Origin: a virus
Lineage: Duplodnaviria; Heunggongvirae; Uroviricota; Caudoviricetes
DNA length: 17,126 nucleotides
Virus record (IMG/VR): IMGVR_UViG_2778261418_000005
Coordinates: 1-17,126 of that record
Direction: 5' to 3' (one strand)
A program made the translations under genes and the position numbers. Positions 2,377 through 16,182 of the stretch are shown here, piece by piece. The first letter of the stretch is position 1, and every line of letters begins with the position of its first letter. The notes beneath the pieces were generated by a model that saw nothing but the letters and a program-made list of their open reading frames with translations, was not told the origin of the DNA and searched no databases.

Positions 2377-4542
2377 ATGGCCGACGAAAACAGACTCAAT
2401 TCCATTCTGTGTAAGTTTGACGCGGACTGGATGGCGAGCGATGAAGCCAGAACCGAGGCGACAAATGACCTGTATTTTAGCCGAGTGTCGCAATGGGATG
2501 ACTGGCTATCAAACTACACTACCCTGCAATATCGCGGACAATTCGATGTTGTTCGCCCGGTGGTCAGGAAACTGGTCGCAGAGATGCGCCGGAACCCTAT
2601 CGACGTTCTCTTCCGACCCAAAGACGGCGCTAATCCTGATGCTGCCGATGTGCTGATGGGGATGTATCGTACTGATATGCGCCATAACACGGCAAAAATT
2701 GCCGTTAACGTTGGCGTTCGTGAGCAGATAGAGTCCGGCGTTGGTGCATGGCGTCTGGTCACGCAGTACGAAGACAACGATCCAACAAGCAACAATCAGG
2801 TAATTCGACGCCTGCCAATTCATGAAGCCTGCTCACACGTCATATGGGACGCCAACAGCAAGCAGATGGATAAGAGCGACGCTAAGCACTGCACGGTGAT
2901 TAACGCTTTGTCACGCAATGGCTGGAAAGAGTTCGCAGAGGATTACGGTATTGATCCGGATACCTTGCCATCTTTCCAGAATCCGAACGATACATGGCTG
3001 TTTCCGTGGGTATCGAATGATGTCGTCTACGTCGCTGAGTATTACGAGGTCGAAGAGAAGAAAGAGAAAGTATTCATCTACCGCGACCCACTGACAGGTG
3101 AGCCAGTCAGCTATTACCAGCAGGATATCAAAGACGTCATCGACGACCTGGCTAATCGTGGATTCATTAAGGTAGCAGAGCGTAAGGTGAAGCGTCGGCG
3201 TGTGTATAAGTCGATTATCACCTGCACGCAGATACTGAAAGACCGCGAGAAGATAGCCGGAGAGCATATTCCAATCGTTCCAGTGTATGGCGAATGGTCA
3301 TTCGCTGGTGACAAGGAGTGCTACGAAGGAGTGGTAAGGCTGACGAAAGACGGTCAACGCCTTCGTAACATGATCATGTCATTCAACGCCGATATTGTTG
3401 CTCGTTCACCGAAGAAGAAACCGACCTTCTTCCCTGAGCAAATCGAAGGCTACGAATACATGTACGGTGGAAATGATGACTATCCGTACTATCTGCAGAA
3501 CAGGACCGATGAAAACGGTAACGACCTGCCGATTGGTCCAATCTCCTACATGGAAAACCCTGAAGTGCCGCAAGCCAACGCTTATATGCTTGAGGCTGCC
3601 ACCAACGCAGTGAAAGAGGTGGCTAGTCTTGGTGTGGATGCGCAGGCAGCAAACTCTCAGGTCGCTTTCGATACCGTCAATCAACTGAACATGCGGGCAG
3701 ACCTTGAGACATACGTGTTTCAGGATAACCTGGCTACCGCAATGCGACGTGATGGCGAGATTTATGCCTCAATGGTCAACGATATTTATGACGTTCCTCG
3801 TCATGTAACGCTGACACTTGAAGATGGAAGCGAGAAAGACGTTCAACTCTATGCGCAAGTTGTCGATTACCAGTCCGGCAATGTGGTCACACTCAACGAC
3901 ATTCGCGGTCGCTATGAGTGCTATACAGACGTCGGACCATCCTTCCAGAGTATGAAGGAACAGAATCGCGCAGAGATTCAGGAGTTGCTAACCAAGGTTC
4001 CGCAAGGTACTCCAGAGTTCCAGATGCTGATGCTGCAATACTTCACGCTGCTTGACGGTAAAGGCGTCGAGATGATGCGAGAGTACGCGAACAAGCAACT
4101 GGTGATGATGGGGCTGAAGAAACCAGAAACACCTGAAGAGATGGAGATGGTACAGCAGGCTCAACAGCAGCCGCAGCAGCCATCAGCAGAGCAAATTCAG
4201 GCGCAGGGCATTCTTCTGCAAGGTCAGGCTGAATTGCTCAAGGCAGAGAACCAACAGGCGCAGATTCAGGTTGAAGCCGCCAAGGTTGAAGCCCAAAACC
4301 AACTCAACGCCGCGAAGATTGCAGAAATCTTCAACAATATGGACCTCGACAAGCAGGCAGAACTGCGTGAGTACCTCAAGCTCGTAGGTCAATTCCAGCA
4401 ACAGCGCAGCAAAGATGCTCGTGCTAACGCTGAGCTGCTTCTTAAAGATGCAGACCAGACTCATTCACAACGCATGGATTTCGCGAATCTTATGCGTCAA
4501 GTTCAAATCCCCTCCGGCGGAGTAGCCGAGACACCTCAATAA
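2377..4542 (+). CDS. Portal protein (P22 gp1 equivalent), 721 aa
   Basis: A 721-aa ORF starting immediately after the large terminase stop (TAA at 2374-2376, ATG at 2377); size and position are those of a P22-type portal; long C-terminal Q/A/E-rich predicted helix typical of the P22 portal C-terminal barrel. Confidence 0.9.
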
Positions 4543-4555
4543 GAGAGAGTTAATC

Positions 4556-5467
4556 ATGGACCAAACCACCGACATTCAGGCTTCTGAAGAATTAACCCTG
4601 CCCGGCAATCATGCAGCGGCATCTGCTGATGGCTTAGTTGTCGATAATGCCAACGACAACGCAGGTCAGGAAGAAGGCTTCGAGATTGTCCTGAAAGACG
4701 ATGAGAAACCAAAACAAGACCCGGCAACTAATGCTGAATTTGCCCGTCGCCGCATCGAACGCAAACGCCAGCGTGAGCTTGAGCAGCAGATGGAAGCGGT
4801 TAAGCGTGGAGAGTTGCCGGAGCACCTGCGGGTGAGTCCTGAGTTACCAAAACAACCAGACCCTAACGATTATCTTTCCGAAGACGCACTGGCTAAGTAC
4901 GACTATGACCAGGGCCGCGCACTGGCTGCCTTCCAGCAGGCAAACAGTGAATGGCAGATCAAGGCTATGGACGCACGAAGCCAGGCTGTCGCCGAGCAGG
5001 GGCGAAAAACTCAGGAGTTCACCCAGCAATCAGCGCAATACGTCGAGGCAGCCCGTAAGCACTACGACGCAGCGGAAAAGCTCAACATCCCTGACTATCA
5101 GGAGAAAGAGGATGCATTCATGCAATTGGTGCCGCCAGCAGTCGGTGCCGATATCATGCGTCTCTTCCCGGAGAAATCCGCTGCTCTCATGTATCACCTT
5201 GGTGCTAATCCTGAGAAAACACGCCAGTTGCTGGCGATGGACGGGCAATCCGCGCTGATTGAACTCACTCGACTGTCAGAACGTTTAACTCTCAAGCCTC
5301 GAGCCAAGCCTGTTTCAGAAGCCCCGTTACCTGATGAACCCATTCAGGGACACGCTGTTGCTGCAAATATCTCTGCGATTGAAAAGCAGATGGAAGCGGC
5401 AGCAAACAAAGGGGATGTAGAGACATACCGCAAGCTCAAGGCGCAACTGAATAAAGGAATTCGATAA
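4556..5467 (+). CDS. Scaffolding protein (P22 gp8 equivalent), 303 aa
   Basis: A 303-aa ORF between portal and coat; highly charged and helical in composition (E/K/R/A/Q-rich); stop overlaps the coat start (TAATG at 5465-5469). Confidence 0.88.
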
Positions 5468-6762
5468 TGGCATTAAATGAAGGTCAACTGGTCACGTATG
5501 CTCTGGATGAAATCATCGAAACCGTCCAGAACCTGACGCCAATGGCGTCCAAAGTGACAAAATACACCCCTCCGGCAGAATCCATGCAGCGTTCAAGCAA
5601 CACCGTGTGGATGCCTGTTGAGCAGGAAGCGCCAACCCAGACTGGCTGGGATTTAACTGGCAAAGCAACCGGGATTCTGGAACTCTCCGTGAAATGCAAC
5701 ATGGGCGATCCGGATAACGATTTCTTCGAGCTTCGTGCAGATGACCTGCGTGATGAGCGTTCTTACCGTCGCCGCATCCAGGCATCCGCCAAAAAATTGG
5801 CGAATAACATTGAGTCAGCAATTGCCAAACAGGCAACCGAAATGGGCTCACTTGTTGTTCACGATACCCGCGCAATTGGTCCATCTACTGGCCTGTCTGG
5901 CTGGGATTTTGTGTCTGATGCAGAGCGACTGATGTTCTCCCGCGAACTCAACCGCGACATGGGAATCAGTTACTTCCTGAACCCTGACGATTACCGCAAA
6001 GCAGGCCGCAACCTGGTAGATGGTGACATCTTTGGGCGCGTTCCTGAAGAAGCGTATCGTAACGGTACTATTCAGCGTCAGATTGCTGGCTTTGATGAAA
6101 TTCTTCGCTCACCGAAACTTCCGGCAGTTACCAAGTCAACCGCTACTGGTGTAACTGTTTCTGGTGCGCAGAAGTTTAAGCCGCAGGCATACACCCTTGA
6201 TACCGATGGTAACAAAGAGAACGTCGACAACCGTGTTGCAACGGTGACCGTATCCTCAACCACCGGATTTAAGCGCGGCGACAAAATCAGCTTCACTGGT
6301 GTGAAATTCCTGTCTCAGATGGCGAAGAACGTGCTGACTGATGATGCTACTTTCTCAATCACCCGTGTGATCGATGGTACTCACATAGAAATCACGCCGA
6401 AGCCGATTGCGCTTGATGACGCTTCACTGACAAAAGAAGAGAAGGCTTACGCTAACGTAAACACCTCTCTTGCTGATACCACTCCGGTAAACGTTCTGAA
6501 CGTGGCAACAACCACCGCTAACGTGTTCTGGGCTGATGACTCAATCCGTCTGCTGTCTCAGCCGATCCCGGTAACCCATGAACTGTTTGCTGGCATGAAA
6601 ACGTCTTCCTTCAGCATTCCTGGTATTGGTGTTAACGGCATCTTCGCAACGCAGGGAGATATCAACACCCTGTCTGGTAAGTGCCGTATTGCTGTGTGGT
6701 ATTCAGCATGTGCTGTACGACCAGAGGCAATTGGTGTTGGTCTGCCTAACCAGACTGCGTGA
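5467..6762 (+). CDS. Major capsid (coat) protein (P22 gp5 equivalent), 431 aa
   Basis: A 431-aa ORF translationally coupled to the scaffold gene; size and position match the P22 coat protein; followed by a strong hairpin terminator. Confidence 0.9.
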
Positions 6763-6768
6763 TAACCA

Positions 6769-6793
6769 GAGGGAGCTTCGGCTCCCTTTTTTA
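6769..6793 (+). terminator. Intrinsic (rho-independent) terminator-like hairpin directly after the coat gene
   Basis: AGGGAGC-TTCG-GCTCCCT stem-loop (7-bp GC-rich stem, tetraloop) followed by TTTTTTA, starting 7 nt after the coat stop codon. Confidence 0.6.
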
Positions 6794-6806
6794 TCTGGAG
6801 ACAAGC

Positions 6807-7079
6807 ATGACACACATGATCTTTCGTCATGGCGACATGAAGAAGTGGAAAGGCGTTGGCTACGACTTTGAAATCGTGAAAGCCGAAGAGCTTCAGGAAT
6901 ATCTGGATGCTGGCTGGTTTTCACATCCTGATGACCTTTTGAAGGATGTTGCAGAGCCAGAGCCAGAGCCAGAGCCAGAGCAAGAGCCAGAGCAAGAGCC
7001 AGAGCAAGAAGAAAAACAGCGTAAAAAGCCTAGTCGAAAACCTAAGGCGGCAGCAGATGAACCTGACAACGAAGGGTGA
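6807..7079 (+). CDS. Hypothetical acidic protein with a tandem PE/QE repeat ([21 protein letters not shown]) and a basic C-terminal tail, about 90 aa
   Basis: ORF in the gap between coat and the gp4 equivalent; ATG at 6807 preceded by GGAG at 6797-6800; lies downstream of the coat terminator; 3' end overlaps the gp4-like start by 23 nt. The track ORF starts further upstream at 6759 (GTG), but that start would span the terminator hairpin. Confidence 0.45.
6954..7007. repeat. Hexanucleotide tandem repeat (GAGCCA/GAGCAA, 9 units)
   Basis: Direct reading: gagcca x4, then gagcaa/gagcca alternating; encodes the EP/EQ repeat in one frame and an SQ/SK repeat in the frame of the downstream gene. Confidence 0.9.
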
Positions 7080-7557
7080 TTTAGTTCTTGCGGCATTACG
7101 TAAGCTCGGTGTGGCATCAAATGCCACGTTAACCGATGTCGAACCGCAGTCTATGGAAGACGGCGTCAACGACCTTGAAATGATGATGGCTGAATGGCTT
7201 GGCGGTGATGCGTCACCAGGTATCAACGTTGGCTACATTTTCGCTGATGCAGATGTCGCTCCAGATCCGGGCGATGAGCACGGTTTATCAAATAACGCTA
7301 TCAATGCCGTCATTTTCAACCTTGCCTGCCGCATTGCTCCGGATTATGCGCTGGAAGCGTCTACAAAACTTATAACCACTGCCAGATACGGGAAAGAGCG
7401 ACTCGTCAAACTGTCTGCAATGGACAGAGCAAAAGCCGCTAAATGTAAGTCCGGTTATCCAAACCGTATGCCTGTTGGTAGCGGTAATCAGTTGGCGAAG
7501 TGGAACGGTTGGAATTACTTCCAGCGAAAGGAACCTTGCGATAACGGGAGCGAATAA
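7057..7557 (+). CDS. P22 gp4 equivalent (portal-associated head completion / tail adaptor protein), 166 aa
   Basis: Start chosen at the ATG at 7057 ([21 protein letters not shown]...), which gives 166 aa and matches my memory of the P22 gp4 N-terminus and length; AAGG at 7044-7047, 9 nt upstream. The track ORF extends upstream to 6946 through the repeat. Confidence 0.8.
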
Positions 7558-8975
7558 TGCCGATTCAGCAACTTCCGCTCATGAAAGGCGTCGGCAAAGA
7601 CTTCCGAAACGCCGACTATATCGACTATCTGCCAGTGAATATGCTGGCTACACCCAAAGAAATACTCAACAGCAGCGGATATCTTCGCTCATTCCCGGGC
7701 ATTGCCAAACGCTCTGATGTGAACGGCGTATCTCGCGGCGTCGAGTACAACATGGCGCAGAGTGCTGTTTATCGCGTGTGCGGGGGCAAGTTGTATAAGG
7801 GCGAAAGCGAAGTCGGTGATGTTGCCGGAAGTGGTCGTGTATCAATGGCTCATGGTCGGACATCACAGGCGGTAGGCGTTAATGGTCAACTGGTCGAGTA
7901 TCGTTATGATGGCACGGTTAAAACCGTCTCAAACTGGCCTACAGACAGCGGATTCACGCAGTATGAGTTAGGCTCAGTACGCGACATTACGCGCTTACGT
8001 GGGCGTTATGCGTGGTCAAAAGACGGCACTGATTCATGGTTTATCACTGACCTTGAAGACGAATCGCATCCTGACCGATACAGCGCACAATATCGCGCAG
8101 AATCGCAGCCTGACGGCATCATCGGCATCGGCACATGGCGAGACTTCATTGTCTGCTTTGGTTCATCGACGATTGAGTATTTCTCCCTGACTGGTGCAAC
8201 CACCGTTGGTGCTGCTTTGTATGTCGCACAGCCATCACTGATGGTGCAAAAAGGCATCGCCGGGACTTACTGCAAAACGCCGTTTGCTGATTCGTATGCA
8301 TTTATCAGCAATCCGGCAACAGGTGCGCCGTCTGTGTATATCATCGGCTCCGGTCAGGTATCACCAATCGCCAGCGCGAGCATTGAGAAAATCCTCCGCT
8401 CCTACACTGCTGATGAACTGGCTGATGGTGTGATGGAATCGCTGCGATTTGATGCTCATGAGTTGCTGATTATCCACCTTCCGCGCCATGTTCTCGTGTA
8501 CGACGCATCTTCAAGCGCCAATGGTCCGCAATGGTGTGTACTGAAAACAGGCCTGTATGACGATGTGTACCGCGCTATCGACTTCATTTACGAAGGCAAC
8601 CAAATAACGTGCGGCGATAAGCTTGAATCGATGACAGGGAAATTGCAGTTCGATATCAGCAGCCAGTACGACAAGCAACAGGAACACCTGCTGTTTACTC
8701 CGTTGTTCAAAGCAGATAACGCCAGAGTTTTCGACCTTGAAGTTGAGTCGTCAACTGGCGTTGCGCAGTATGCTGACCGCCTGTTCCTCTCTGCAACCAC
8801 TGACGGCATAAATTATGGGCGTGAGCAGATGATTGAGCAGAATGAACCGTTCGTTTACGACAAACGCGTTTTGTGGAAACGAGTAGGGCGCATCAGGAAA
8901 AACATTGGCTTCAAATTGCGCGTTATCACGAAGTCACCTGTCACTCTGTCTGGCTGCCAGATAAGGATTGAGTAA
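7557..8975 (+). CDS. P22 gp10 equivalent (head completion / tail hub protein), 472 aa
   Basis: A 472-aa ORF, the length I recall for P22 gp10; translationally coupled to the upstream gene (TAATG at 7555-7559); position after the gp4 equivalent. Confidence 0.85.
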
Positions 8976-9823
8976 TGGCGGATTCGAATCTCAATGTGCC
9001 GGTAATCATTCAGGCTACACGACTCGATACATCAGTCCTTCCACGCAATATCTTCTCGCAGTCATATCTGCTGTACGTTATTGCACAGGGTACTGATGTT
9101 GGTAACGTGGCGAACAAGGCCAACGAAGCAGGGCAGGGCGCTTATGACGCACAAGTCAGGAACGATGAGCAGGATGTGATTCTGGTCGATCACGAAATTC
9201 GACTGGCATCAGCTGAAGCGAAGATTCAGGACCACGAAACAAGGATCACTAACGCAGAATCGGCGATAGTCGGCCTTGATTCCCGATTAACGACAGCAGA
9301 AAACGATATTGATTATCTGACTGATGAAGTTATCGCCATTCAAAACACGCTTTCAGACCATGAAACGCGCATTGATGCTCTGGAGTATGCCACTACTCGC
9401 AAAAAGTCAGAGGTTGTTTACTCTGGCGTATCTGTAACCATCCCGACAGCGCCGACCAACCTTGTTAGCCTGCTGAAAACGCTCACGCCGTCATCCGGGA
9501 CGTTGGCACCATTCTTCGACACTGTTAACAACAAGATGGTTGTGTTCAACGAGAACAAAACCTTGTTCTTCAAGCTGTCGATCGTCGGGACGTGGCCCAG
9601 CGGAACCGCCAACAGGTCAATGCAGCTAACCTTTTCCGGCTCTGTTCCTGATACGCTGGTCAGCAGTCGTAATGCGGCGACAACAACCGACAACATCCTG
9701 TTAGTTACGTTCTTCAGCGTGGATAAAGACGGTTTTCTTGCCACAAATGGCAGTACGTTAACTATTCAGTCAAATGGGGCGGCGTTTACTGCCACAACCA
9801 TCAAGATAATCGCGGAGCAGTAA
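8975..9823 (+). CDS. Tail needle protein (P22 gp26 equivalent) with an extended C-terminal domain, 282 aa
   Basis: N-terminus [43 protein letters not shown] matches my memory of the P22 gp26 N-terminal tip; central heptad-like coiled coil; the C-terminal ~120 aa are S/T/N-rich and beta-like, and the protein is longer than the P22 needle. Confidence 0.85.
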
Positions 9824-10278
9824 TGATTCAGTTCAAACCAACGCGAAACATCGACTTGATCGAAGCAGTCGGAAATCACCCTGACATTATTGCCGGGAGC
9901 AACAACGGTGATGGATACGACTATAAACATGATTGCCGTTACTTTGAGGTGAACGTGCACGGGCAGTTCGGCGGCATTGTTTACTATCAGGAGATTCAGC
10001 CTTTGACCTTTGATTGCCACGCCATGTACCTGCCAGAGGTTCGTGGATTCAGCAAGGAAATCGGGCTGGCGTTCTGGCGATACATTCTGACTAACACCAC
10101 CGTTCAGTGCGTCACATCGTTCGCTGCGCGCAAATTCCGCCACGGTCAGATGTACTGCGCAATGATTGGCCTTAAGCGAGTAGGAACCATCAAGAAATAC
10201 TTCAAAGGCGTGGATGACGTGACTTTTTACAGCGCAACACGCGAAGAACTAATCGACTTCCTGAATCACGGGAGATAG
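9823..10278 (+). CDS. P22 gp14-position protein (head completion / ejection-associated), 151 aa
   Basis: Assigned by synteny only (between tail needle and ejection protein genes); TAATG coupling with the tail needle gene; no motif recognised. Confidence 0.6.
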   Translation: MIQFKPTRNIDLIEAVGNHPDIIAGSNNGDGYDYKHDCRYFEVNVHGQFGGIVYYQEIQPLTFDCHAMYLPEVRGFSKEIGLAFWRYILTNTTVQCVTSFAARKFRHGQMYCAMIGLKRVGTIKKYFKGVDDVTFYSATREELIDFLNHGR

Positions 10279-10280
10279 CC

Positions 10281-10973
10281 ATGTTATATGCATTTAAGCT
10301 GGGCAGAAAACTGCGCGGCGAGGAACCTTATTGCCCTGAAAAAGGCGGGAAAGGTGGCAGTTCTGATAAAAGCGCAAAGTATGCCGCAGAAGCCCAGAAG
10401 TATGCCGCAGACCTGCAAAATCAGCAGTTCAACACCATCATGAACAACCTGAAGCCGTTTACTCCTCTGGCTGATAAGTATGTCGGCAGCCTCGAGAACT
10501 TATCGTCTCTGGAAGGGCAAGGTCAGGCACTTAACCAGTATTACAACTCTCAGCAGTACAAAGATCTTGCTGGTCAGGCTCGCTATCAGAGTCTGGCGGC
10601 AGCGGAAGCAACAGGTGGATTGGGTTCCACTGCAACCGGTAATCAGTTAGCAACAATCGCACCAACGCTTGGTCAGCAATGGCTATCTGGTCAGATGAAC
10701 AACTACCAGAATCTGGCAAATATTGGTCTTGGCGCACTGCAAGGTCAGGCAAACGCCGGGCAAACATATGCCAACAATATGAGTCAGATTTCGCAGCAAA
10801 GTGCGGCTCTTGCAGCGGCAAATGCCAACAGACCATCAGCAATGCAATCTGCTATTGGCGGAGGTGCGTCTGGTGCTATTGCTGGGGCCGGACTTGCGAA
10901 ATTAATTGGTTCATCAACTCCGTGGGGGGCTGCGATCGGCGGCGGTCTTGGTCTGCTTGGCTCGTTGTTTTAA
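10281..10973 (+). CDS. Ejection (internal virion) protein, P22 gp7 equivalent, 230 aa
   Basis: A 230-aa ORF in the gp7 position; Q/N/A/G-rich with a glycine-rich hydrophobic C-terminus (GAIAGAGLAKLIG...GGGLGLLGSLF). Confidence 0.8.
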   Translation: MLYAFKLGRKLRGEEPYCPEKGGKGGSSDKSAKYAAEAQKYAADLQNQQFNTIMNNLKPFTPLADKYVGSLENLSSLEGQGQALNQYYNSQQYKDLAGQARYQSLAAAEATGGLGSTATGNQLATIAPTLGQQWLSGQMNNYQNLANIGLGALQGQANAGQTYANNMSQISQQSAALAAANANRPSAMQSAIGGGASGAIAGAGLAKLIGSSTPWGAAIGGGLGLLGSLF

Positions 10974-10983
10974 GGGGTAATCA

Positions 10984-12333
10984 ATGGCTACGTGGCAACA
11001 GGGTATTAATTCTGGTGGTTTTCTGGCTGGCATCGGTACGCAAAATGAGAATGCGCCAAAGGCAAGCGACATTAACGCAACGCTTGGTCTGATCCGCGAA
11101 AACAATGAACTGGCTCGCTCAGGTGCAAATAACATTGGTCTGACCGCGTTACGTGGTCTGGCTGGAGTTGCTGATATTTACAATCAGGAACAGCAACAGA
11201 AAGCGATTAGTGCGTTCAATAAGGTTCACGCTGATGCATGGGCTTCTGGTGATCCATCGGGACTATTTAAGTTTGCCCAGGAAAATCCAGCGTTTGTTGC
11301 ACAGGCACAACAGGCGTTTTCCGGTCTTAATGATCAGCAACGCAACGATATGGGCGATTTAGCCATGAGGGCTAACGTCGCTCTTTCTCAGGGACCGGAA
11401 GCCTACAGTAAATTCATTACTGACAACAAGGACAGGTTAAATCGCGTGGGGGCGAATGCTGACTGGATGATTCAGACAGGTATCCAGAATCCAGAGCAGC
11501 TATCACACATGCTGACTACTATGTCTCTCGGTGCGCTTGGACCAGAAAAGGCGTTTGCTGTTCAGGATAAGATGGTTGGTCGCCAGCAGGAGCAGCAAAG
11601 AATTAACGAAACCATTCGCAATAATGACATGACGAATGCGAGGGCTATTAGGGGGCAGGATCTTTCCTATAAGGCTCAAATGGCAAGACTGAATCACGAC
11701 AAGTATGTGTTTAAGCAGTCACAGGCGGCCCTTGAAAGAGCAGGACAACCTCAGGATATGGATGTTTTGTCTCTTAACTCACAGATAGCAGCGACGGGAA
11801 TTGATCCGCTAACCGGTAAAGCTGCAACGTCAGCCAGAATGTCTCAGGCTAAGAGATGGCTTGATGGCAACAATAATTACAACAATGCGTTGATTACTGG
11901 TGAGCGAGGGATAGAGAAAATAGATTCTTTGCTTGGTAAGAAGGAGCTTGAAGGTATCGGTCGCTTCGAAGGAAGAAATATAGATGGCTTCACAAGTGCT
12001 GAAGGGCTTGCAAACCGTAATGCGATAGAAGAATTAAAGTCGGGTGCGTTTGTCCAGAACGTGCAGACTATGCGAGGTATGGGTAGCCTCTCCAATGCTG
12101 AAGGACAAAAACTGGAAAACCTTATCGCGAAACTCGATATAACACAGCCTGAAGAGGTCGTCAGAAAACAGTTATCTGAAATCCGATCGCAATATTCTGT
12201 ATTTCAAAAGGTTGCAGCAAGGGAGGCTGAATCAATGGGATATAGTTCATCAGGTTATGACACATATGTTAGTGAGCGAAAATCAGGAAGCGACAGCAAT
12301 AAGTCCGGTTTCTCGTCTTTATGGGGTGATTAA
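10984..12333 (+). CDS. Ejection (internal virion) protein, P22 gp20 equivalent, 449 aa
   Basis: A 449-aa ORF in the gp20 position, same strand, 10-nt gap after the gp7 equivalent. Confidence 0.8.
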
Positions 12334-14492
12334 TGGCTAAAGCATGGAAAGATGTTATCGCTTCTCCACAGTATCAGGCGTTAACTGAAGAACAGAAAGC
12401 ACAGGCTCAAGCGCAATATTTTGATGAGGTTGTTGCCCCTAAGGCTGGTGACAAATGGGCTGAAGCAAGAGATCAGTTTTATGCAGCATACCCTCCGCAT
12501 CAGCAGCAGAAAGAAGAACCATCATTGATGCAACAAGCTGGCGATTGGCTCACAGGTGGTCAAAGTGCAGGGCAAATTGCAGAACAGGCTGGTCGTGGTC
12601 TGGTAAACATACCATTTGACGTATTGCAGGGTGGCGCAAGTCTGATTAATGCAATCAGCCAGGGGCTTGGTGGCCCCAAGGTTTTGGATGATGTTTATCG
12701 CCCTGTCGATCGACCGACAGACCGTTGGGCGCAAGCCGGTGAAACATTTGGTGGGTATCTCCTGCCAATTGGCACAGCGGCAAAAGCTGCTGGAGCGACA
12801 GCAAAGCTCGCAGGAGACATCGGTTCCGCAGGAAACATGATTGCAGGTTCTCTTGCTGATGCTGCAAATCAGGAGGGTGATTTTGCACAAAATGCTGCCA
12901 TTAACGGTGGTATCAATTTTGGTGCTCAAGGCGTTCTTTCAGGTGTCGGGCGCGTTATTGCGCCAAGGGTTTCACAGGCTCTTGGTGGTGCAGCACTGAA
13001 TTCTGCTAATGATGTTTCCAGGATGGCAAAGTCAGGTGCTGGGCGTCAGTCAATTGCCAGTCAGGCCGCTAATGTGTCCGAAGATGTAGCAAAAGCGGCT
13101 GAGTCTGCTGGAATTGATATAAACGCATTAACACCAGGAATGCGATCTGGAAGTCGTGGAATTGCACAAGCCGAAGGCGCATTGGCATCAACACCAGGAA
13201 TTGTTCAGGACGCCCATCAGGCAGCATTTAACGAAATATCATCAAAGTTAAGTCGAAACCTTGATGAATTTGGGGCCGCATCTGGAACGGCATCAGAAAA
13301 AAGTGCGGCTATAAAACAAAGGATTCTTCAAAATCTTGATCAGATGAAGGATGCCGAGCGCGCGGCATGGGATGACGTGCGGTCAACAATGCCAAATCAA
13401 AAAGCAAGAATGCTAAATGGTAATGCCGTTATTCAGGCAGAGCGATCTGCCGGCATACCGCTTACTCCTGAAATGAAACAGTTTGTTCAGGCAAACAATC
13501 AAGGTGGAGTAACATTTGATGGCATGAAAGCATGGAGAGCGAAATTTGCTGATGCGGAGCAAAAATATAAGCGTAGCGGAGAGGCAAATGCGGCAAGGAG
13601 AGCAGGGGAAATACGCCGGGCAATTACTGATGATATGCGCACAATGGCGGAAAACGGCGGATTTCTTGATGACTGGCAAAAAGCTAATGATCTGTCTAAA
13701 GCGAGGTTATCAGCACAAGAGAGTGCAGAGTCTGTTTTCGGGCGTGATTTGGCAACAGATGCACTGATTACGAATGGAGTAAAATCCCTTCAATCATCGT
13801 CAGCTAAAGGTCTTAATGGTCCTGCTGGATTCCATTCTATGATCCGCGCTCTGCCAGAATCAGAGCGTGTTCCTGCTATATCATCAATGTTGAAGGATGC
13901 CATCTCGCATGGTGTACGTGGTGGCAAAGCTGATGCAGCAGGAATTAACCATATCGCAGAGATACTCACTCCACAAAATGTAAAAGCCATTAGCCGATAT
14001 TCCTCAGAGCTTGGAAGAATTGCTGATGCATATGGCACTCTTGCAAGAGCAGCAGTGAAACCTCAGCAGTATATTGAAAGAACAGGGAGAACTGCCAATG
14101 TACTACGCGATCTGGATGCCGGTTTATCCAACATCACATCAGCAGTGTTAAATGCAATTGCCAACTCAACATCAGGTGCCATTGTTGGTGGCGCTGGAGG
14201 GGGCATTGCAGGCGCTGCCGTGGGTGCTTTAGTTGGCGCTGGGTTAAAAGGCGCTGTATCTAAAATTGCCACCACACGTAGTGGTCGATATGCGATAGAG
14301 AAAGCTGTTCAGGAAGCCACCAAAGCAGTAAGAGCTGGCGGAAGTAAAGAAGCATTAGCGGCGGCGGAACGCAGATTTATGGCAAATAAAGCCGCCGTAA
14401 AAGCAATACGTGATGCAGTTGGAAACGAAGAGTTCAATCGCTTAGCGAGGGCTGGCATTGTAGCGTCGCTAAGCGGAATAGCACAGGAGTAA
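12333..14492 (+). CDS. Ejection (internal virion) protein, P22 gp16 equivalent, 719 aa
   Basis: A 719-aa ORF in the gp16 position; translationally coupled to the gp20 equivalent (TAATG at 12331-12335); glycine-zipper-like hydrophobic segment near the C-terminus ([27 protein letters not shown]). Confidence 0.8.
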
Positions 14493-15386: not shown

Positions 15387-15409
15387 AAGGAGTAATCATG
15401 ATTTACCCA

Positions 15410-15946
15410 TCAAACAACCCACCAGTTTGCCTGATTGGATACCAGCCTTGCAGTTTTTATGGAATTAATTATGCCATGCTCAAGAGCCTTGTTAGCATCC
15501 AAAATGGTCGAGTCTGCTATCAGGGATGCCCACCTAATATGGGTTCCGATGTCGATATTGAACGCCTCAACGAAGCGATCAAGATCGTTATCGAGGCATT
15601 TCCCGTACTCTCTCAATCTGGCATGGTCGGCGGCTGGGGTGGCAAAGCCCCATAATAGAGGATGTAACAGGAATCTTGATAATGGGTTTGCGAAACGTTC
15701 TGAGCCAGCCAGGAAAACGATATTAGCTATGGATTCAACATTGCTTATGTTGTGAGTTCTAACGGTAACAGGGAGTGACTTAAGAAAGTTATACGCAGTA
15801 AAGCCAGCGGCAGTTTCCCCTCCCTGACTTGATATATGGATATTTAATTCAGTTGCGCCCTGAGATAATGCGGTGAGACAGTGGTTCTGAAGTTGCCCAA
15901 CAGTGGCAGTGTTAACGGGGCATAAGAAATGAATTGTGTGCAGCAT
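15410..15946 (-). CDS. Minimal ClpP-fold (peptidase S14-like) serine peptidase, 178 aa
   Basis: Collinear match to the ClpP core as I recall it: NIHISSQGGETAAGFTAYNFL against ClpP YINSPGGVITAGMSIYDTM; SIANIVFLAG against catalytic-Ser SMGAFLLTAG; LLHPL against MIHQP (His); a D-S-T segment near the ClpP Asp position; C-terminal HGIINSI against YGLVDSI. Start codon overlaps the stop of the upstream Mnt-like gene (TAATG). Confidence 0.7.
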   Translation of the reverse strand: MLHTIHFLCPVNTATVGQLQNHCLTALSQGATELNIHISSQGGETAAGFTAYNFLKSLPVTVRTHNISNVESIANIVFLAGSERFANPLSRFLLHPLLWGFATPAADHARLREYGKCLDNDLDRFVEAFNIDIGTHIRWASLIADSTILDANKALEHGIINSIKTARLVSNQANWWVV

Positions 15947-16182
15947 TATTTTTCATCCTTACCATACATGGTCTTTAGCGTCTCAAGCAGCGCCTCCCTG
16001 AATTTGTCAGCCTCTTTCTGAGCAAATTCATTGCTATTAAGCGATCTACCACAAACAGCATCTTCGATAATCTGTATTATTTCAGCATTCATGGAACGCT
16101 TGTTATGTTGCGCCCTAGCTTTAACCTTTGCCTTTAACTCTTTGGAAATTCTAATATTTATTTGCGGCTCTTCGCGTGACAT
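15946..16182 (-). CDS. mnt: Mnt-like ribbon-helix-helix repressor, 78 aa
   Basis: N-terminal RHH pattern (INIRISKELKAKVKARAQHNKRSMNAEIIQIIEDA) similar to my memory of P22 Mnt; divergent from the arc-ant genes as in P22 immI; GGAGG 4 nt upstream of the ATG. Confidence 0.82.
   Translation of the reverse strand: MSREEPQINIRISKELKAKVKARAQHNKRSMNAEIIQIIEDAVCGRSLNSNEFAQKEADKFREALLETLKTMYGKDEK

Follow-up and report, generated by a model that had tools for sequence, protein, structure and literature searches.

The locus described here raises the question of which of two overlapping reading frames is translated through a short tandem repeat, and whether this repeat is free to change its length. The repeat lies in the virus record IMGVR_UViG_2778261418_000005, whose whole 17,126-nt stretch was analysed and is hereafter called the window. 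It consists of nine tandem 6-nt units at positions 6954-7007, near the junction of a small open reading frame (ORF) and the gene of the gp4 head-tail adaptor. We suggest that the array is, with high probability, a hypermutable, frame-preserving coding microsatellite in the tolerant linker of a real small late gene, and that gp4 is made separately from its own start at 7057. The features of the locus are the following.

6768-6795, + strand: intrinsic terminator-like hairpin with a T-run, directly 3' of the coat stop
6797-6800, + strand: Shine-Dalgarno sequence GGAG of the small ORF
6807-7079, + strand: small ORF of 90 amino acids, homolog of P22 orf69 (phrog_1175), between the coat terminator and gp4
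6807-6950, + strand: folded N-terminal domain of the small ORF, residues 1-48, as indicated by AlphaFold2, codon-position variation and alignments
6946-7056, + strand: in-frame extension 5' of gp4, MLQ(SQ/SK)n..., probably spurious
6954-7007, + strand: hexanucleotide array, nine units, residues 50-67 of the small ORF
7020-7046, + strand: basic C-terminal motif RKKPSRKPK of the small ORF
7043-7049, + strand: Shine-Dalgarno sequence TAAGGCG of gp4, inside the tail of the small ORF
7057-7557, + strand: gp4 head-tail adaptor (P22_Tail-4, PF11650), 166 amino acids, from the ATG at 7057

The array reads (GAGCCA)4 GAGCAA GAGCCA GAGCAA GAGCCA GAGCAA, that is six GAGCCA and three GAGCAA units. The nine units reported by the original prediction are thus exact on direct reading, and they are also found by Tandem Repeats Finder, which places the top-scoring repeat of the window at 6952-7009 (period 6, 9.7 copies, 90% matches, score 95). 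The exact period-6 self-match is 24 nt long in the array versus 8 nt at the longest anywhere else in the window, and 500 first-order Markov simulations gave 6.8 nt on average and never more than 10 nt. The array is far beyond chance. Its double readability was also described correctly, with the only amendment that the small ORF starts at 6807. In the frame of the small ORF (6807-7079) the array is read as EP/EQ repeats (Glu-Pro/Gln, nine times). The frame of gp4 is open from the ATG at 6946, and there the same DNA is read as SQ/SK and runs on into gp4. This upstream part is open because GAGCCA contains no stop codon in any frame.

Which frame is used was left uncertain by the original prediction. 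Comparative evidence now points to the small-ORF (EP) frame for the array and to 7057 for the gp4 start, the N-terminus of gp4 being deduced from sequence. The comparison covers 80 IMG/VR loci found through the gp4 protein, together with phage and E. coli records, and 88 sequences were used for the array. Five independent lines were followed, namely stops inside the array, loss of the upstream ATG, the upstream frame in outgroups, the alignment of gp4 and the pairing of the Shine-Dalgarno (SD) sequences.

In five relatives (L214-L218) the array includes GAGCTA (Glu-Leu) units. Read in the gp4 frame, these give TAG stops that separate the upstream ATG from the conserved start of gp4, while the small ORF remains open; gp4 is called at 166 amino acids in four of these five loci. 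Among the relatives with such units is a complete E. coli chromosome (CP056955.1). The ATG equivalent to 6946 is found in 71 of 84 relatives and is absent in the other 13; three of the 13 losses are GAT to GAC changes, silent in the small ORF, and two of the 13 relatives have the gp4 frame open further upstream, with other ATGs. In the outgroups the upstream frame is closed or has no start. P22 has a TAA two codons 5' of the gp4 ATG, and the stretches of open codons upstream of gp4 in ST64T (23), Sf6 (12) and an Enterobacter prophage (29) contain no Met.

The protein itself is consistent with the start at 7057. Residues 1-163 of the window gp4 align to residues 1-157 of the 166-residue P22 gp4 (PDB 8tvu and other entries), and the Pfam family P22_Tail-4 (PF11650) covers residues 2-160 of the ORF from 7057. 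The 37-residue extension encoded by 6946-7056 has no match to any PHROG or Pfam family. Pairing with the anti-SD sequence gives -7.5 kcal/mol at 5-nt spacing for 7057 and -6.4 kcal/mol, also at 5-nt spacing, for 6807. For 6946 it gives only -2.9 kcal/mol at zero spacing, as the GAAGG directly abuts this ATG, so that 6946 is without a usable SD sequence. The SD sequence of gp4 is conserved as CCTAAGGCGG in P22, ST64T and the Enterobacter and Klebsiella relatives; that of Sf6 is CGTAAGGCGG, which differs in the first base. Two further comparisons do not contribute. Substitutions in the 49 nt that follow the array do not tell the frames apart and were not used as evidence. Variants of the array units are synonymous in 28 of 51 cases in the EP frame versus 2 of 51 in the gp4 frame, counts that are inflated by GAACCA amplification in two arrays; counted by type, the numbers are 3 versus 2 of 9 and uninformative, and this line of evidence was dropped.

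Public annotations are in conflict at exactly this point. The records of IME10 (RefSeq NC_019501.1, 25847-26452) and Dewey (PQ850600.1, 7126-7719) give a 'head-tail adaptor' from the upstream ATG, 201 or 197 amino acids long. Both omit the orf69-like small gene, and Dewey has a 45-residue ORF in its place. APC_JM3.2, Bas106 and the inspected prophages annotated by the Prokaryotic Genome Annotation Pipeline (PGAP) have the small ORF and a gp4 of 166 amino acids; the record of APC_JM3.2 additionally flags a repeat_region. We suggest that the SQ-extended gp4 of IME10 and Dewey is a probable mis-annotation. The start at 7057 would settle the conflict, both for the spurious extension and for the omitted small gene.

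The small ORF belongs to the family of P22 orf69. It matches phrog_1175 (function unknown) with an E-value of 3.7e-32 over residues 1-88, and nearly all of its 309 homologs are called 'hypothetical protein' and come from prophages of E. coli, Salmonella, Shigella, Klebsiella and Enterobacter. Distant relatives with 30-45% identity came from an exhaustive HMMER search; a second profile search, of a set of 5.8 billion proteins, returned mostly the close relatives already in hand. The orf69 of P22 ('unknown, putative') occupies the equivalent position and aligns to the small ORF over its whole length, and G36, W37, H40 and P41 are kept in the alignment with it and the distant members. The family has four parts: (i) an N-domain of ~45 residues, in which G36 and W37 are invariant and H40 and P41 (the HP motif) near-invariant; (ii) an acidic linker, often Pro-rich, of highly variable length; (iii) a basic K/R-x-G-R-(K/P)-P-K motif, with RGRP in distant members; and (iv) a short acidic terminus. 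The window protein has the same succession of acidic linker and basic tail. Its basic motif is RKKPSRKPK, where most relatives have KKPGRKPK, with S in place of G.

The model by AlphaFold2, based on an alignment of 29 sequences, shows residues 1-48 as folded, with predicted local distance difference test (pLDDT) values of 85-92, a beta-hairpin at 2-25 and helices at 26-34 and 41-48. Residues 49-90 have a pLDDT of about 50 and are predicted to be disordered or extended. A search of the PDB with the N-domain fold gave no match, and one of BFVD gave matches to uncharacterised phage proteins only. The N-domain is represented by 32 distinct DNA alleles; of the 31 variant ones, 22 differ at third codon positions. 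In the frame of the small ORF 19 are synonymous, in the two alternative frames 3 and 5. Because of this excess of third-position and synonymous changes, the small gene is taken to be under purifying selection as a protein.

Known domain families give little. Pfam assigns no family to the small ORF, the only match being the compositional one to procyclin (PF05887; E 0.004, 17.5 bits versus a 100-bit cut-off), and the name 'dihydrolipoamide acetyltransferase', which some homologs bear as their source label, was rejected as probably an artefact of linker composition. The basic tail resembles an AT-hook (PF02178), also a short basic G-R motif flanked by K/R and P, and this likeness includes the RGRP of the distant homologs. 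The sequence does not match one, however: the KKPSRKPK of the window, with PSRKP, is without the G of the G-R core, and gives no match at E<=0.1. Neither P22 orf69 nor the close relative P0051 has a Pfam AT_hook match even at E<=10, and one distant homolog only (P0134) has a sub-threshold match of 14.0 bits versus a cut-off of 17.4. In the literature that was searched there is no paper on the function of orf69 or on the polymorphism of the array, nor a description of the locus as a typing marker. The conserved and unstudied orf69-family late protein, with its folded head, length-tolerant acidic spacer and basic tail, deserves attention.

Several members of the family vary in ways other than unit number. 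In some prophages the small gene encodes 197 amino acids, the N-domain being followed by a WDGH domain (PF25311, E 1.3e-39) and only then by the linker, and ST64T orf-186 is likewise a long form. An E. coli homolog of 93 amino acids (P0010) has a 13-residue tandem duplication at the end of the N-domain, just 5' of the EP array, which is a second type of length change in the small gene. Two further members (L039 and P0049) have a GGA in place of the TGA that ends the small ORF, which adds 8 residues (GFSSCGIT) across the gp4 start; the exact C-terminus of the small protein is apparently not critical.

The repeat number was predicted to differ between isolates, and counting the units in related genomes bears this out. 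The 88 related phage and prophage sequences have 1, 2, 3 ... 15, 24 or 33 units, whole hexamers only, with no out-of-frame allele among them. The distance from the end of the array to the gp4 ATG is 49 nt in 88/88. The largest arrays are those of strain GPEC1446, with 24 units, and of E. coli 98195, with 33 perfect GAGCCA units and a small ORF annotated at 138 amino acids. Clusters of the small-ORF protein range from 76 to 98 amino acids, and among the 60 listed of 219 matching E. coli genome records a 361-nt query spans 331 to 505 nt. In pairs of sequences with identical flanks (250 + 300 nt) the unit number differs in 10 of 16. Hence, the array changes faster than about 550 nt of flank gains one substitution.

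The composition of the arrays agrees with this behaviour. Long arrays consist of GAGCCA alone or of GAACCA alone, and interrupted ones, including that of the window, have higher-order blocks of 12 nt (EPEQ) or, in others, of 24 nt (ESEPELEP). Steps of whole units together with such blocks fit slippage of single or multiple units as the likely mechanism. Near-perfect head-to-tail units beyond chance and whole-unit polymorphism among close relatives are those of a microsatellite, or variable-number tandem repeat (VNTR). As a fast-evolving in-frame length marker, the array could separate otherwise near-identical P22-like prophages. A phase-variable contingency locus is not indicated, as the unit is 6 nt long and the small ORF is open, with the 49-nt distance to gp4 unchanged, in 88/88 alleles. 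Four E. coli records (H34, H36, H48 and H49), with spans that are not a multiple of 3, were suspected to be frameshift alleles fusing the small ORF to gp4, and this was rejected: in H36 and H48, the two that were retrieved, the odd base is in the intergenic region between coat and the small ORF, the ORF starts at 347 and not 348, and the arrays are whole units. The IMG/VR contigs L012, L017, L029 and L040 begin inside the array, and many genome contigs with (GAGCCA)>=4 start or end at arrays. Short-read assemblies evidently break at the array, and draft data probably give an incomplete sample of its lengths.

The hexamer is also no phage-specific element. At least 120 unrelated bacterial genomes, for example of Marinobacter, Vreelandella, Shewanella, Bartonella and Pseudomonas, contain (GAGCCA)>=4, and at 66 of 80 such loci examined the longest spanning ORF reads EP. 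GAGCCA is a generic EP-linker microsatellite, which, as a general expectation, favours the EP frame for the window array too.

Hence, we suggest the following sequence of events at this locus. The array would be translated as (Glu-Pro/Gln)9, an acidic, Pro-rich, disordered or extended spacer between the 48-residue N-domain and the short basic tail. Since the unit is 6 nt, its gain or loss never breaks the frame. Slippage during replication or unequal recombination would add and remove units, at times as blocks of 12 or 24 nt. The protein appears to tolerate from 0 to at least 33 units, so that the copy number may drift quickly, and nearly neutrally, between near-identical phages. Initiation of gp4 would be independent, at the ATG 7057, from the SD sequence that the small-ORF tail contains, and the 23-nt overlap of stop and start makes translational coupling between the small ORF and gp4 plausible. 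This is an ordinary length-variable linker and no new mechanism, and its value is chiefly practical, for correcting annotations and for telling strains apart.

Other readings of the locus concern its translation. In one of them gp4 is made, at least partly, with the SQ/SK N-terminal extension from the ATG 6946. The open frame, the ATG kept in most relatives and the annotations of IME10 and Dewey speak for it, but the stops in the arrays contradict it for the relatives that carry them, and the lost ATGs, an upstream frame that is closed or has no ATG in P22, ST64T, Sf6 and Enterobacter, the abutting GAAGG and an extension without a family match, in front of a protein whose solved P22 counterpart is aligned from residue 1, make it very improbable. 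From these comparisons of sequence we conclude that the SQ/SK reading of the array is in all likelihood not a product. A +1 ribosomal frameshift that fuses the small protein to gp4 is hardly credible at all. Relative to the small ORF, gp4 is in the +1 frame, and GGG UGA U would allow Gly-to-Gly re-pairing: at the GGG-UGA stop the tRNA-Gly would move from the GGG of 7074-7076 onto GGU and so join ...DNEG to residue 8 of gp4. However, this site (7074-7079), the sole candidate, although no formal frameshift-site scan was run, is not conserved, as P22 and the Enterobacter and Klebsiella relatives end in GAC TAA. A correctly spaced stimulatory SD sequence is absent, gp4 has its own strong SD sequence and start, and the fusion would be without gp4 residues 1-7. 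The GGG TGA ending of the small ORF is probably coincidental.

The remaining alternatives accept the small gene and give the array a role beyond that of a tolerated linker. The array might be an adaptive tuning or contingency element, with variability under selection and the unit number setting either the reach from the N-domain to a DNA-binding tail or the flow of ribosomes into the coupled gp4. The array indeed varies far more than its flanks, distant members also have an acidic Pro-rich linker of one length or another in front of the basic motif, and the stop of the small ORF overlaps the gp4 start in every lineage examined. Yet units of 6 nt are unable to toggle expression on and off, out-of-frame alleles are missing from the sample, P22 orf69 works with no repeat, the AT-hook resemblance fails at the G-R core, the same hexamer serves as a generic EP linker in unrelated bacteria, and the broad spread from 1 to 33 units without a preferred length resembles drift. 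We regard such tuning as unlikely. Quite unlikely, too, is its most specific version, in which the orf69-family protein is a late DNA-contacting factor, a folded head and an AT-hook-like tail on a rod of hypermutable length, whose reach is varied by slippage as a 'rheostat' contingency locus that is not on/off. If true, the variation in reach could tune gp4 synthesis or the handling of DNA by the portal, or evade a host defence that senses the protein. Rather improbable as well is a role chiefly in the DNA itself, in which the array, as a tract of microhomology, would be a recombination joint where phages exchange the body of the small gene. Here the prophages with the WDGH form (L025, L041, L049, L051, L069, L070, L072 and L075) are suggestive: the gene body is exchanged as a cassette, with a 555-nt segment where the window has 193 nt, identity to the window is at least 98% at the 3' end of the coat gene and 98% over the 549 nt that follow the array, and the right-hand mosaic junction is at the left edge of the EP array. 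But this is a single junction type, a boundary between protein domains would fall at the linker anyway, ST64T orf-186 is a long form without an EP array, and nothing shows that the repeat promotes exchange.

The preferred reading, a frame-preserving microsatellite in the linker of the small gene, is in line with known systems. P22 orf69 (BK000583) and ST64T orf-186 are, like the window gene, located 3' of the coat terminator with a stop that overlaps the gp4 start, and Sf6 gene 6 and HK620 hkbT are positional analogs. P22 orf69 shares with the window protein a homologous N-domain (GW, HP, ~34% identity), a basic tail of the KGRKPK type and the same gp4 SD sequence, but its linker is the short, non-repetitive PVEADDV instead of nine EP/EQ units. 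ST64T orf-186 differs by the inserted WDGH domain, and the Sf6 and HK620 genes have a different N-terminal part. The orf69/phrog_1175 family and the standard behaviour of an in-frame VNTR are known; what differs in the window member is the expanded EP array.

Outside this family, E. coli TonB, an energy transducer spanning the periplasm, has a Pro-rich (Glu-Pro)n-(Lys-Pro)m spacer, which is thought to be extended and whose exact length is tolerated. As in the window protein, an acidic X-Pro dipeptide repeat is followed by a basic Pro-containing stretch; however, the two are not homologous, the window protein has just one short basic motif, and nothing points to a role in the envelope. The trypanosome procyclins (EP/PARP, PF05887) have long Glu-Pro arrays as in the window, a resemblance of low complexity and not homology. 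Coding hexanucleotide VNTRs, the 6-bp loci of multiple-locus VNTR analysis (MLVA), some of them in prophages, serve for bacterial strain typing, and the window array is similar to them in its in-frame 6-nt units, its copy number varying between close isolates and the breaks of contigs.

As a whole, the window represents the morphogenesis block from an E. coli phage or prophage of the P22-like type (Lederbergvirus). Its nearest phage records, Dewey, Louie, Bas106, APC_JM3.2, HZ41 and IME10, are 93-96% identical to it. The terminator-like feature after the coat gene is annotated in the P22, Sf6 and HK620 records as well, and the layout of terminator, small ORF and overlap with gp4 is common to the window, P22, ST64T and the Enterobacter and Klebsiella relatives. 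The other genes are the following.

411-899: small terminase
877-2376: large terminase
2377-4542: portal
4556-5467: scaffold
5467-6762: coat
7557-8975: gp10
8975-9823: knobbed tail needle
9823-10278: gp14-like protein
10281-14492: three ejection proteins
after the ejection genes: immI-like region with an Arc-like repressor (15946-16182, - strand)

With its 282 amino acids and a match to the 'tail needle knob' family phrog_1030, the tail needle is of the knobbed type. It is longer than the plain tail-needle profile phrog_1219 (233 positions), which its first 146 residues match as well. Next to the Arc-like repressor, two ORFs on opposite strands, 15398-15655 (+) and 15410-15946 (-), overlap almost fully, and both have PHROG matches; the families found at this pair are phrog_7758 (full length, E 1e-61) and the ClpP/SppA-like 'head maturation protease' phrog_94 (E 1e-21). 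Probably just one of the two ORFs is real. Further short tandem duplications within genes are found at 10370-10411 in the first ejection protein (period 21, 2 copies), at 4152-4180 in the portal C-terminus (period 12, 2.4 copies) and at 1938-1972 in the large terminase (period 18, 1.9 copies).
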